Positions 19,330 to 48,382 of a DNA stretch of 64,000 nucleotides are shown in pieces. The stretch's first letter is position 1. Every line of letters begins with the position of its first letter. The stretch is taken from contig JAUWBN010000002.1 of NCBI GenBank assembly GCA_030601675.1, positions 2,150-66,149 of the forward strand, in the 5' to 3' direction. The DNA is from Hadesarchaea archaeon (GTDB lineage Archaea; Hadarchaeota; Hadarchaeia; Hadarchaeales; Hadarchaeaceae). The notes under the pieces are model-generated. The model did no database searches, was not told the DNA's origin, and was given only the letters and a program-made list of their open reading frames with translations. A program made the position numbers and the translations under genes.

Positions 19330-19416
19330 TGGAGCCGCCGGTGGGGGTCGAACCCACGACCTATCGCTTTCCCGACAGGTTACGAGGCGATCGCTCCACC
19401 GCTGAGCTACGGCGGC
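19330..19416 (-). tRNA. tRNA-Thr(CGT) with 12-nt intron (19369..19380) at 37/38; CCA encoded
   Basis: Acceptor GCCGCCG/CGGCGGC, anticodon stem ATCGC/GCGAT, GGTTCGA T-loop, U discriminator. Confidence 0.92.
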
Positions 19417-35514: not shown

Positions 35515-35655
35515 TTATTCCCTTTCCAGCTCCTCGTAGGGCTCCACTTCTGAGTAGAGGCACTCACCATTCGAGTAGTAGCCGCACTCTGAGCAACACT
35601 CGTTCCGGTTCTCGCACCCATCGTACATGCAACACCGAGGACAACACTTCGGCAT
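35515..35655 (-). CDS. 46-aa cysteine-rich small protein
   Basis: MPKCCPRCCMYDGCENRNECCSECGYYSNGECLYSEVEPYEELERE; GGTGG SD-like upstream; TTAAATA box near 35700. Confidence 0.7.
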   Translation of the reverse strand: MPKCCPRCCMYDGCENRNECCSECGYYSNGECLYSEVEPYEELERE

Positions 35656-35760
35656 TTCTTCCCACCGAGAATTTCGTTTTTGATATGAGAAAAATCGCTT
35701 ATTTAAGGCTTTCGAAGATTTTAGGAAAGTTTTTATGGAAGTTAAACCAATTTTTTTATT

Positions 35761-36043
35761 GCGCCGGGAGAGCAAACCGGAAGGGCCCCTAGAATTGATC
35801 CTGGTGGATCCCACTGCTAGGGGTTTCAAGCGGGCTGGGCCAGCTCGAAGGAACCCTGAACGGCAGGCTGACGGGGTTGATTCAAAAGCGCTCGAAGGGT
35901 TGCGGCGTGGAGAACTCGTAAGGGTAATCCGCACGGTCCGTGATGGGTCGGAACGACGTGGTTCGGCGGGCTGCCCAAAAAGTGGTCCGGGCGGGCTACG
36001 TTGTCTGCAGTCATCGAGTTGCCCGCGGCTCTTATCTCGGCGC
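35761..36043 (+). ncRNA. candidate structured non-coding RNA (~283 nt), family unrecognised
   Basis: Termini pair (GCGCCGGGA/TCTCGGCGC); many internal helices with G-U pairs; BRE/TATA-like GAAAGTTTTTATG about 30 nt upstream. Confidence 0.65.
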
Positions 36044-36094
36044 ACCCTTTGATAAAAAATTTAAGGTCGAAGAAACAGATTTTTTCTGGTTGTC

Positions 36095-36205
36095 ATGCCC
36101 AAGAAGAAAAGACCCGAGTACGAGCGGAAGCTCAAGCTCATCCGCCAACGCATCCTCGCGCCAAGTGATGTCGCCAAGCGTCTGCGAAAGAAATCGAAGA
36201 AATAG
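36095..36205 (+). CDS. 36-aa highly basic small protein (not in ORF track)
   Basis: MPKKKRPEYERKLKLIRQRILAPSDVAKRLRKKSKK, 16 of 36 residues K/R; AAATTTAAG box about 35 nt upstream. Confidence 0.6.
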   Translation: MPKKKRPEYERKLKLIRQRILAPSDVAKRLRKKSKK

Positions 36206-36217
36206 CGCGGTGCGTAT

Positions 36218-37093
36218 GTGGATGTAATCCGGGAGTTCGACCCCTGGGGCGATCCCCTCTGTACCTGCCCGAAAAAGTATGGGTTCAACCCTTACACGGG
36301 CTGTCCCCATCGTTGTATTTATTGCTACATCACCTCTTACATCCCGCGAGCTTTTGAATGTAGGGTAAAGAAAAATTTATTGAAGCGTGTTGCGCGTGAT
36401 CTCAAGCGGGTTGACAAGCGTCGCGTCATCAGCATGTCGAACAGTTCTGACCCATACCCGCCGATGGACGCCAAACTCAAATTAACCCGTGCTTGTCTCG
36501 AACTTTTTTCACGCGAAGGTTGCCGCGTACAAGTGGTAACGAAATCTGACCTCGTCACCCGCGATATAGACATACTTTTACAGCTATCCTCGGTGGTCAG
36601 TTTTACGATAACTACTCTGAAAAGAAATTTGAGTCGAAAACTCGAGCCGCTGGCACCTCCGCCCAAGCGAAGATTGAAAGCGATGAAAAAACTCTCGAGT
36701 GCTGACGTGCCGGTGGGTCTGCGTCTCGACCCGATCATCCTAGGATTAAATGATGTCGAAATTGATCGAATAATTGAAGCTGTCGCTAGTGTTGGTGCTA
36801 AGCACGTAACTTCGTCAACGTTTAAGCCACGCCCCGATGGTTGGCATCGTTTTCAGCGAGTTTTTCCTGAAACCGCGGCCAAGCTCACGCCGTTATACTT
36901 CGAGCAAGGCAAACGGCACCACAACAGCTGGTACTTGCCACGGGAGGTTAGGCTCGAGCTCATGAAACGAATCAGAGAAACATGTACCGCCCATGGACTC
37001 ACCTTCGCCTCCTGCCGTGAAGGACTGCAGGAATTGACGACCGGTGCAAGCTGTGACGGGAGTCATTTAATTTCGAGGAAGGGTTCAAGCTGA
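36218..37093 (+). CDS. radical SAM protein, SplB-like
   Basis: DPW..LCTCP, FNPYTGCPHRCIYCY, SNSSDPYP, VVTKS. Confidence 0.88.
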   Translation: MDVIREFDPWGDPLCTCPKKYGFNPYTGCPHRCIYCYITSYIPRAFECRVKKNLLKRVARDLKRVDKRRVISMSNSSDPYPPMDAKLKLTRACLELFSREGCRVQVVTKSDLVTRDIDILLQLSSVVSFTITTLKRNLSRKLEPLAPPPKRRLKAMKKLSSADVPVGLRLDPIILGLNDVEIDRIIEAVASVGAKHVTSSTFKPRPDGWHRFQRVFPETAAKLTPLYFEQGKRHHNSWYLPREVRLELMKRIRETCTAHGLTFASCREGLQELTTGASCDGSHLISRKGSS

Positions 37094-37094
37094 C

Positions 37095-37730
37095 CTATTT
37101 TAAGACCTTTCCTGTTTTCAAGTACCAAAGGTAAAGATCCAACTCGCCAAGTGTGAGCCCGAGCTTCCGCGCGAGCTCCTCGAGCTTTCGCTCTATCTCC
37201 AGATATCGTCCGCGCGTCAGCGAGCGGGGCACCCCATCGATAGATCCATGTTCGTGCAGCACGCTGAGCACATGCCGGTCCAAAATCGCCACATCATCAA
37301 ATCCCACGTTGCGCAGGAAATGACTCGATTCCTTATAGCCTACGCCCCTCACGTTCTCGGCCAGCCACTCACGAGCCTGTCGCGCATACGTGAATCCCTC
37401 GATGATATTCTTTATGCCGAGAAATCTGCGTGCCTCGACGATGAAGCGTGCCCGGGTGTTCGGGAATCTGTGCCCCGCAGCCTTTAGCCTGTGCCTGAGT
37501 TCCTCGAGCGGGAGCGTCAAAAATCCCTCGCTGCCCAGCTCGCGTTGAATCTTCATCCCCAGCCTCGCGGTCGAGTTCGCCGTCAGGATGCAAAAGCAAA
37601 GCTCCGAGAACCATTCCTCGTTGCCCTCGCGGCCGAGATCCTTGAACTCTCGAATCCTCCGAGCTATGCGTTTGTATACCTCGCCACGCCTCAGCTCATT
37701 TACCTTGCCCGCTAAGTCCGCGCTCACCAA
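37095..37730 (-). CDS. ogg: 8-oxoguanine DNA glycosylase/AP lyase (archaeal Ogg)
   Basis: ELCFCILTAN, HRFPNTRA, GVGYKESSHFLRNVG..VAILDRH, LDLYLWY. Confidence 0.93.
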   Translation of the reverse strand: MVSADLAGKVNELRRGEVYKRIARRIREFKDLGREGNEEWFSELCFCILTANSTARLGMKIQRELGSEGFLTLPLEELRHRLKAAGHRFPNTRARFIVEARRFLGIKNIIEGFTYARQAREWLAENVRGVGYKESSHFLRNVGFDDVAILDRHVLSVLHEHGSIDGVPRSLTRGRYLEIERKLEELARKLGLTLGELDLYLWYLKTGKVLK

Positions 37731-37778: not shown

Positions 37779-38594
37779 CTAGGTGATTGCGAGCTTTGTT
37801 TGGACTGGAGCGAGCTGCCATGGACGGGCGTGCTTCACCAACTCACGTGCCACCCTTGAAGGTTGCACCCACTCGAACGCTCGCGCGTCGGCTGGGCTGG
37901 CGTCAAGCACGGAAAACTCTGCCACTTCATCTGGGGCAATGGGGACCGAAACCAAGCCCGACTCCGGGTTGAGGCTCATCGGCGCCAGCAATAGGCCTCG
38001 CCTTGCCCGAAGCTCGGAAAGGAGGCAGGTGTCCGTCCCTCGCTTTATCCTAAGGGGAGAAGAAGCGCCATCAATGTGAATATTCGACCAGCGCTCGACT
38101 AAATAGCTCGCAATATAATTCGTCAGTCTTCCCTGCAGGTCTGTCAGCGCGTCGCCATCCCCCACCCAAGCTTCGTTGGGGATGGCTTCGAGTGATATCA
38201 ACAGGTCAAACCCAAGTCGGCCGGAGTACTTGACCCAAGGCTCGGAAACACCGCCATCGGCCAGCGCCTCAATCACCGAGGCCGTCACCGTCCTAGCGAA
38301 CCTCAGCCCTCCACGCCTCGCCCGCACGGTCCAGACCAAGTCGTGCCCTAGCGGGCGGGAGAAGTCCTGGCCGGGATAACGCCAGTAGGAACAGTAGAAT
38401 GCCGTCGCTCTCGAGGCCAAGGCCCGGTCGAATGCCGCTGCCGAGTCCAAGACGATGGGGTGCTCGCTGAGGTGGCGCTGTATGCCCTTGGTGCGGGCGT
38501 TGTAGAAAGCGCATTCTCGTTCGCCGCTGCCCTTGCTAGCACGCGCGAAATCCATGATCGCTCGTCTCGCGTCCAGGCGCCTGTAGTAGTTCAT
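37779..38594 (-). CDS. archaeo-eukaryotic primase (AEP)-superfamily domain protein with degenerate catalytic motifs
   Basis: GHDLVWTVR, VKYSGRLGFD and APMSLNPESGLVSVPI line up with AEP motifs I, II and III. Confidence 0.6.
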   Translation of the reverse strand: MNYYRRLDARRAIMDFARASKGSGERECAFYNARTKGIQRHLSEHPIVLDSAAAFDRALASRATAFYCSYWRYPGQDFSRPLGHDLVWTVRARRGGLRFARTVTASVIEALADGGVSEPWVKYSGRLGFDLLISLEAIPNEAWVGDGDALTDLQGRLTNYIASYLVERWSNIHIDGASSPLRIKRGTDTCLLSELRARRGLLLAPMSLNPESGLVSVPIAPDEVAEFSVLDASPADARAFEWVQPSRVARELVKHARPWQLAPVQTKLAIT

Positions 38595-48289: not shown

Positions 48290-48382
48290 TGGTGGGGTCG
48301 CCGAGATTTGAACTCGAGTCACCGGCTTTTCCGCCCGAAAGCCCCGAAGCCGGCAGGATAGACCAGGCTACCCCACGACCCC
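48290..48382 (-). tRNA. tRNA-Pro(CGG) with 15-nt intron (48328..48342) at 37/38; CCA encoded
   Basis: GGGGTCG/CGACCCC acceptor, CCGGC/GCCGG anticodon stem, BHB motif with UUCG/CGGA central helix. Confidence 0.93.

Follow-up and report, generated by a model that had tools for sequence, protein, structure and literature searches.

A stretch of 64,000 nucleotides from the genome of a Hadesarchaea archaeon (assembly GCA_030601675.1, contig JAUWBN010000002.1, positions 2,150 to 66,149 of the forward strand; genome G000 in our set, the stretch being called the window below) carries an RNA gene at 35761–36043 which almost certainly encodes a real, uncatalogued, structured non-coding RNA (ncRNA). The explanation that we favor, with moderate confidence, is that of a stand-alone, trans-acting structured RNA of one family of Hadarchaeota, which would be excised from its transcript, circularised and used as a scaffold or regulator. 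An earlier note on this DNA had already proposed a stand-alone, promoter-equipped, uncatalogued large ncRNA, a proposal upheld by the covariation of its helices, by the lack of an Rfam match and by the signal recognition particle (SRP) and RNase P RNAs that the genome encodes elsewhere.

Comparison between species provides evidence that the stretch acts as an RNA. Homologues from 27 species were aligned with MAFFT, and the consensus structure calculated with RNAalifold comprises 91 base pairs; in a separate count, 96.1% of the alignment cells form standard pairs. Compensatory double changes were found at 45 pairs, compared to 22.8 ± 2.7 in column shuffles, none of 500 of which reached 45, and controls in which the partners were slid by 1–3 columns retained 12–22 pairs with double changes. 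Most of the double changes are located in helices H4, H6, H7, H8, H11 and H13. The + strand of 35761–36043 folds with –133.5 kcal/mol (z = –3.5, with 0 of 200 shuffles equally stable) and the – strand with –102.2 kcal/mol (z = –2.0). Invariant G-U pairs, e.g. at alignment columns 208/247, 210/245 and 218/235, fix the RNA strand as +, in agreement with the earlier observation that G-U pairs favor this strand. Across genera, the identity of the RNA to that of G000 is 60–81%, and that of the SRP RNA of the same genomes 72–85%.

In G000, an open reading frame (ORF 35735..36052, 105 aa) is open across the gene, and the stretch could in principle code for this protein or for an antisense product. 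We give this a negligible probability. The ORF is broken into different frames in most homologues, the longest stop-free stretch switches frame and strand between species, 72 of the 76 pairwise gap runs have lengths that cannot be divided by 3, and the substitutions in helices are compensatory, which argues against a coding reading. The frame, whose conservation the earlier note had named as evidence against an ncRNA, is not conserved; with neither a conserved frame nor indels in multiples of 3, we consider the coding reading refuted.

The boundaries of the gene agree between methods. In relatives, BLASTN homology extends from query positions 16–21 to ~304 of the window segment 35741–36063, matching the RNA boundaries, and a covariance model built from the 27 species (R1) matches the window RNA end to end with 296 bits. 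The gene starts with GCGCCGGGAGAGC and finishes with GCUCUUAUCUCGGCGC. Upstream, the TATA-like element TTTTTATGG occupies 35730–35738, its center ~27 nt before G35761, and the corresponding TTTATGG/TTTTATA block is found at a fixed spacing from the first G in all 27 homologues; downstream, every homologue has 3–7 T at the same place just past the closing helix. The box resembling a B recognition element (BRE) with a TATA element and the trailing T run, both pointed out before, are therefore conserved at fixed spacing throughout. These sequence signals, a conserved BRE/TATA box before the gene and an oligo-T run shortly after it, show it to be an independent unit with its own promoter and oligo-T end.

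To place the RNA among known families, the Rfam 15 collection was used (4227 models, including group I and group II introns, H/ACA and C/D small RNAs, and Hgc RNAs). At gathering score the whole window yielded three tRNAs only, and at E≤10 the 601 nt at 35600–36200 yielded only noise, with E values of 0.4–9 and eukaryotic or viral families. No family was matched in this search, which the earlier note had called for, and the novelty of the RNA stands. On the same 601 nt there was no match at E≤10 to Archaea_SRP (RF01857; threshold 96.5 bits, helices 5, 6 and 8) or to RNaseP_arch (RF00373; threshold 84 bits, P4 and CR-I to CR-V), which confirms with covariance models the lack of SRP and RNase P signatures reported from inspection. 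In the genome (0.94 Mb in 35 contigs, 86% complete), the sole SRP RNA match is C35:44386–44696 with 170.8 bits, and the RNase P RNA is C1:38640–38926 with 203.7 bits. Since the canonical SRP and RNase P RNAs are encoded on other contigs, the candidate is a third RNA of that size class and a divergent form of neither. A likeness to P4/P5 of group I introns, suggested earlier, had relied on a UGCGG/CCGCA helix that finds no support in the covariation, and no Rfam intron model matches. In the literature we found no paper on a structured or circular ncRNA of Hadarchaeota. Close to the SRP RNA gene (L001, G000:C35, 1501–1811), an apparent tRNA gene, GCCGGGGUAGCCUAGCCAGGU..., starts a few nucleotides 3', which suggests co-transcription.

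One might also take the candidate for a paralogue of a catalogued RNA, such as SRP RNA or RNase P RNA, that has strongly diverged or been permuted, but this is highly improbable. In its size and in its closed-end architecture it does resemble these two RNAs, and the string AAAGUGGUCCGGGC in G000 faintly recalls CR-I of RNase P RNA; however, this string lies within hairpin H13 and is not conserved, the consensus of the homologues being AAAGGCGGUUCGGGC, and neither a full nor a partial match emerged from the 4227 models in a genome with canonical copies of both RNAs. The comparison is nonetheless instructive. Like archaeal SRP RNA (RF01857) and RNase P RNA (RF00373), the candidate is an RNA of ~280–310 nt with its own promoter, paired ends, a multi-helix covarying fold, a single copy and similar conservation. 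Unlike them, it matches neither model, lacks the SRP helix-8 and RNase P P4 signatures, and is limited to one family in which it was repeatedly lost, so that it is neither universal nor essential. With the bacterial orphan RNAs OLE, GOLLD, ROOL, raiA and HEARO it shares a lineage-restricted distribution, a complex and strongly covarying fold recognized by comparative genomics, and a function unassigned at discovery; in contrast to these, it is archaeal, has no sequence or model similarity to them, is not set in a phage or mobile-element context, and probably depends on the tRNA-splicing machinery for its processing. It is also smaller than GOLLD, ROOL or OLE.

A BLASTN search with 35741–36063 against 61 related genomes detected one copy each in 28, among them the 14 species of the window's genus without exception and most genera of the family. 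With R1, the RNA was found in 31 of 66 Hadarchaeota genomes, all belonging to family f1 and representing 10 of its 12 genera; laxer filters revealed a divergent copy of 259 nt in a further genus (G034, 67.7 bits) at the same locus. Applied to 401 genomes, 335 of them from outside the phylum, R1 found nothing beyond family f1, with four candidates scored per genome, a setting that missed the weak G034 copy and from which distant homologues may escape. A pattern scan of GTDB species genomes identified carriers labeled Hadesarchaea, Hadarchaeota and Candidatus Hadarchaeum, the rest being chance matches in high-GC bacteria. In metagenomes the search pattern used was too loose, with none of the 80 returned loci true, and viral contigs gave one match, by chance. 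A contig labeled Candidatus Bathyarchaeota (L088, JBBIVD010000178.1) has a copy of the RNA (273.7 bits) together with the Hadarchaeota gene order of radical S-adenosylmethionine (SAM) gene, ogg and p271; the contig or bin is probably mislabeled or mis-binned.

Several lineages of the family have lost the gene. At the syntenic site it is cleanly deleted in G018 (L167), where 133 nt are left between the radical SAM and Cys-rich genes, and in G021 (L190), where 90 nt are left. In genus g11 (L181–L186) the spacer is an unrelated AT-rich sequence, with two exceptions: G030 retains a decayed remnant of the 3' domain (L182:1186–1424), and G068 a divergent copy (L331:2011–2282) without the H9/H10 hairpin and with CUAG changed to AAAG. 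As far as these genomes indicate, the RNA is strongly constrained where present, yet dispensable; it appears useful but non-essential, because several lineages deleted it.

The fold consists of two large arms closed by helices at the RNA ends (Table 1). The outer helix H1, recognized in the earlier note, is 99.6% paired across the alignment, and three of its pairs show double changes (G-C to A-U and A-U to G-C). In arm 1, double changes occur at 8 of 12 pairs of H4, 5 of 8 of H6 and all 3 of H7; H5 is invariant, so covariation cannot speak on it. The internal-loop helix with bulges in this arm, GGAUCCCACUG/CAGCAGGCU, is likewise invariant, and the terminal loop contains an invariant GGCC. The strand AAAAGC joins arm 1 to arm 2, whose three hairpins differ in character: H9/H10 combines a GNNA loop with a 3x3 GAA/UAA internal loop, H11 a GUGAW loop, and H12/H13 is long and G-U-rich. 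In this arm, 11 of 14 pairs of H8, 4 of 6 of H11 and 4 of 8 of H13 are doubly changed, and H9 and H12 are 98–100% paired. Many invariant nucleotides sit in junctions and internal loops, the pattern expected of a compact tertiary fold or a protein-binding surface. A scan for extra covarying stacked pairs returned spurious 3-bp runs only. The strings GUGAUGG and CUGA, inspected by eye, were rejected as K-turns (kink-turns) or C/D boxes because the required G-A pairs are absent or variable.

Table 1. Coordinates of the RNA gene, its parts and the small neighboring genes in the window
Feature	Positions	Strand	Remarks
RNA gene body, G-to-C of outer helix	35761..36043	+	283 nt; BLASTN homology limits, covariance model, covariation
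Archaeal promoter: purine-rich BRE-like GGAAAG, then TATA-like TTTTTATGG	35724..35738	+	sequence and conservation
Short T-run, oligo-T archaeal terminator	36048..36050	+	a few nt past outer helix
Outer helix H1, 5' strand GCGCCGGGA	35761..35769	+	9 bp with 36035–36043
Outer helix H1, 3' strand UCUCGGCGC	36035..36043	+	partner of 35761–35769
Central 4-bp helix, leader strand GAGC	35770..35773	+	pairs with 36028–36031; covaries
5' unpaired triplet AAA, then invariant CCGG (35777–35780)	35774..35776	+	3 nt in 25 of 27 homologues
3' bulge UUA	36032..36034	+	fits 3 nt in all 27 homologues
Helix P(b), 5' strand GGGCC	35783..35787	+	pairs with 36027–36031 (GGCUC)
CUAG joining strand, central three-way junction	35789..35792	+	invariant in 27 of 27, kept in divergent G034 copy
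Arm 1, helices H4-H5-H6-H7	35792..35883	+	covariation
Arm 2, stem H8 and four-way junction with three hairpins	35890..36019	+	covariation
Predicted mature RNA, ~258 nt, probably circular (36033 joined to 35776)	35776..36033	+	inferred from motif and EndA/RtcB
Cys-rich 46-aa protein, divergently transcribed, first of pair with hsp20-like gene	35515..35655	–	no Pfam match
Very basic 36-aa micro-protein MPKKKRPEYERKLKLIRQRIL...	36095..36205	+	directly downstream of RNA; no Pfam match

Among the internal pairings proposed from the sequence of G000, the 13-bp helix 35953–35965/35992–36004 corresponds to H12, and the GUAA loop is real and of the GNNA type. The helix 35831–35837/35841–35847 holds in its 3-bp core, H7, and only there. 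Two proposed local helices give way to long-range ones: the strands of GCCCCUAG/CUAGGGGU (35785–35792/35817–35824) belong to the covarying helices P(b), H4 and H6, and UGCGG/CCGCA is replaced by H8 and H9 (GUGGA/UCCGC). The hairpin at 36016–36031 is particular to G000, and the long-range pairing CCACU/AGUGG is broken by an A-C mismatch in half of the sequences. CCGGA/UCCGG can pair in 89–100% of sequences; CCGG is invariant and hence gives no covariation, and the pairing competes with the base of H13.

The ends of the RNA resemble a processing site of tRNA introns. In the 27 aligned species, the 9-bp outer helix is followed by a 4-bp helix that covaries across genera (GAGC/GCUC, GGGU/GCCC, GGUC/GGCC, AGGU/ACCU). 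The 3' bulge keeps its length through a variety of sequences (UUA, UCA, CUA, AAA, CAA, UAA, AUU), the register being ambiguous in G024 and G026. The arrangement thus has the 4-bp central helix, the two staggered 3-nt unpaired sites and the outer helix of the motif called bulge-helix-bulge (BHB). The divergent G034 copy keeps the motif and has in addition a true 4-bp inner helix, CUCC/GGAG, with no CCGG segment. From these comparisons, which test the point in part, we infer that the terminal region is a relaxed BHB, or bulge-helix-loop, motif like that of the genome's own tRNA introns. The tRNA-Thr and tRNA-Pro introns of the window, 12–15 nt long, have a 4-bp helix, a 3-nt 3' bulge and a 5' site located in a loop without an inner helix. 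The two genes, tRNA-Thr(CGU) at 19330–19416 and a tRNA-Pro(CGG)-like gene at 48290–48382, both on the – strand, have their introns at the canonical position with AAA as the 3' bulge; ARAGORN miscalls the latter as a gene with a 4-base anticodon. The motif at the ends of the RNA had been missed in the earlier note.

Cleavage after the second bulge nucleotide, a rule re-derived on the tRNA-Thr intron of this genome, predicts cuts after 35775 on the 5' side and after 36033 on the 3' side, which would release the mature RNA given in Table 1. The genome encodes the splicing endonuclease EndA (PF01974, 110 bits) and the ligase RtcB (PF01139, 606 bits). The EndA of Hadesarchaea is an alpha-4 enzyme with an L3 loop linked to relaxed substrate specificity (PMC5829648). 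On the SRP and RNase P RNAs of this genome, no BHB-like flanks were found.

A second pairing competes for the same sequence. The 3' strand of the 4-bp helix, as part of GGCUC (36027–36031), can instead pair with GGGCC (35783–35787), an internal near-copy of the leader strand, to form helix P(b). This helix is 93% paired, three of its five pairs have double changes, and it tracks the leader strand from genus to genus. Circular RNAalifold of the trimmed molecule predicts P(b), which can form only after removal of the leader. Across the predicted ligation junction, P(b) closes a 9-nt loop, UU-ACCGGAA with the hyphen at the junction, which displays CCGG. Four species with a 3' insertion have an equivalent stem, AAGCCUC/GAGGCUU, that uses the inserted segment instead. 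Taken with the terminal motif, this sequence evidence suggests, at somewhat better than even confidence, that the RNA is processed at the BHB-like motif and circularised.

Several observations weigh against processing and circularisation. The inner helix required by the strict hBHBh' form is reduced to 1–2 bp (C-G, C-G) in most members. The statistics of P(b) are modest, as its number of covarying pairs is reached in 29 of 500 shuffles, and P(b) could be merely an alternative conformer. Across genera, the sequence of the outer helix hardly varies; this exceeds the need of a discarded stem and agrees with a mature linear RNA in which the paired ends are retained. On such a reading, the mature form is a linear RNA of ~283 nt with its ends held in a 13-bp terminal stem, EndA does not cleave it, and the bulge and 4-bp helix are ordinary structural elements. 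The near-invariance of H1 suggests that it belongs to the functional molecule, the would-be inner helix is weak, and plain terminal helices are also found at the ends of the SRP and RNase P RNAs of this genome; but the 4-bp/3-nt geometry persists despite changing sequence in 27 species and in the G034 copy, it matches the tRNA-intron motif of the genome, and P(b) covaries while competing for the same 3' strand. We regard the linear form as unlikely, although a serious contender, and retain excision and circularisation as the probable route.

Circular RNAs excised at BHB motifs are known in Archaea and include tRNA introns (among them the tRNA-Trp intron, which contains a C/D box small RNA), the circular pre-16S and pre-23S rRNA intermediates, and the permuted SRP RNA of Thermoproteus. 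The candidate is similar to these in that a terminal helix containing a 4-bp helix and 3-nt unpaired sites surrounds its body, EndA and RtcB are encoded, and the predicted product is closed. Unlike them, it is no intron of any host gene and its leader and trailer come to only ~25 nt; it is neither rRNA nor SRP RNA, its inner helix is nearly absent, its ~258-nt fold is new, and the circle is in this case a prediction. Circular isoforms have also been described for the omega RNAs of archaeal IS200/IS605 elements (PMC12558985). As with these, the candidate is a structured archaeal RNA of 200–300 nt that is able, by prediction, to be circular; in contrast to omega RNAs (PMC12558985), it has no adjacent TnpB or IscB, is single-copy and syntenic, possesses its own promoter and has no variable guide end.

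The locus provides information on whether the RNA acts on its neighbors. The gene order in the family is largely conserved: apgM, hsp20-like, Cys-rich 46-aa, RNA, (basic 36-aa), SplB-like radical SAM, ogg and p271. In many genomes the radical SAM gene or the basic micro-ORF lies 22–175 nt downstream of the RNA in the same orientation, an arrangement that would suit a riboswitch-like, cis-acting leader for one of these genes. In at least eight genomes, however, the RNA is followed by ogg or p271, encoded on the opposite strand, and such differences in the identity or strand of the downstream gene rule out that the RNA is a cis-leader. In all homologues the closing helix is followed by a T-run, and the 5' and 3' ends of the RNA pair with each other, with no alternative terminator/antiterminator pair. 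A riboswitch would have a constant, co-oriented downstream gene and an expression platform, and the RNA has neither; we thus consider a cis-acting leader very improbable.

The two small flanking proteins had been suggested as partners of the RNA, but their phyletic patterns do not track it. The Cys-rich gene adjoins the RNA in 21 of 27 loci and is present in 43 of the 66 Hadarchaeota genomes, which belong to two families and include RNA-less genera. The basic micro-protein occurs in 10 of the 66 and is absent from about two thirds of the RNA-bearing genomes; in the f1 genomes that possess it, it directly follows the RNA wherever both share a contig (in G061 they are on separate contigs). These patterns rule out the two proteins as obligatory partners. 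Most species in the genus to which the window belongs have lost the basic micro-protein.

The following sequence of events would account for the observations. Transcription would start from the RNA's own promoter, and the transcript would fold into two large arms closed by the 9-bp and 4-bp helices, with ends that present the bulge-helix-loop motif. EndA would cut after 35775 and 36033, and ligation of the ends by RtcB would yield a circle of ~258 nt. Once the leader has been removed, GGCUC would be free to re-pair with GGGCC, giving a three-armed molecule in which the junction lies in a 9-nt loop showing the invariant CCGG. Contact surfaces may be provided by the invariant internal loops in arm 1 and by the four-way junction in arm 2, and the circle may be a stable, trans-acting scaffold or regulator to which one or more proteins encoded elsewhere bind.

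As to function, a protein-binding scaffold or regulator rather than a ribozyme is our tentative preference, judged from the pattern of conservation. Speaking against it, no partner protein linked to the RNA gene was identified, as both small neighbors fail co-occurrence. The same observation would fit a catalytic RNA, i.e. a new ribozyme class, or an RNA-only assembly that multimerises through invariant self-complementary CCGG/GGCC loops. The invariant nucleotides are concentrated in junctions and internal loops, not in helices; two loops typical of tertiary docking, one GNNA and one 3x3 GAA/UAA, are present; and two invariant palindromic tetranucleotides are found in predicted loops, CCGG in the junction loop and GGCC in the terminal loop of arm 1. 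Yet nothing points to a substrate, a cleavage site or an oligomer, the G034 copy is without the CCGG segment altogether, and palindromic 4-mers in loops easily arise by chance, which makes a ribozyme or RNA-only assembly improbable. In a more far-reaching and doubtful version, the ~258-nt circle would represent a new archaeal RNA class without a dedicated protein, acting as a ribozyme or by CCGG/GGCC self-assembly, for which circularisation would be a maturation and folding switch from the leader helix to P(b).

Apart from rRNA, SRP RNA and RNase P RNA, very few large RNAs with complex folds are, to our knowledge, known from Archaea. The strong covariation, the conservation near that of SRP RNA and the lack of a catalogue match point to a cellular function, not yet described, in this uncultured phylum of the subsurface. 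Should circularisation prove true, we would have here a free-standing gene that relies on the tRNA-splicing enzymes to make its main product; the covarying helix swap between precursor and mature RNA would be a natural case of circularisation as a folding switch; and the molecule would offer a compact natural scaffold for circular RNA production. The repeated loss within the family provides natural presence/absence contrasts for finding the partner and the role of the RNA.

The neighboring genes show some further features. The Cys-rich 46-aa protein has 10 Cys (CCPRCC...CC..C) and an acidic tail, and may be a metal-binding stress micro-protein. The SplB/DUF1848-like radical SAM gene (36218–37093, + strand) and the gene for the Ogg-HhH 8-oxoguanine glycosylase (37095–37730, – strand) are arranged tail-to-tail, 1 nt apart, in what looks like a DNA-repair pairing. 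The 271-aa protein p271 (37779–38594, – strand), with no Pfam match, is kept throughout the family as part of the syntenic block.

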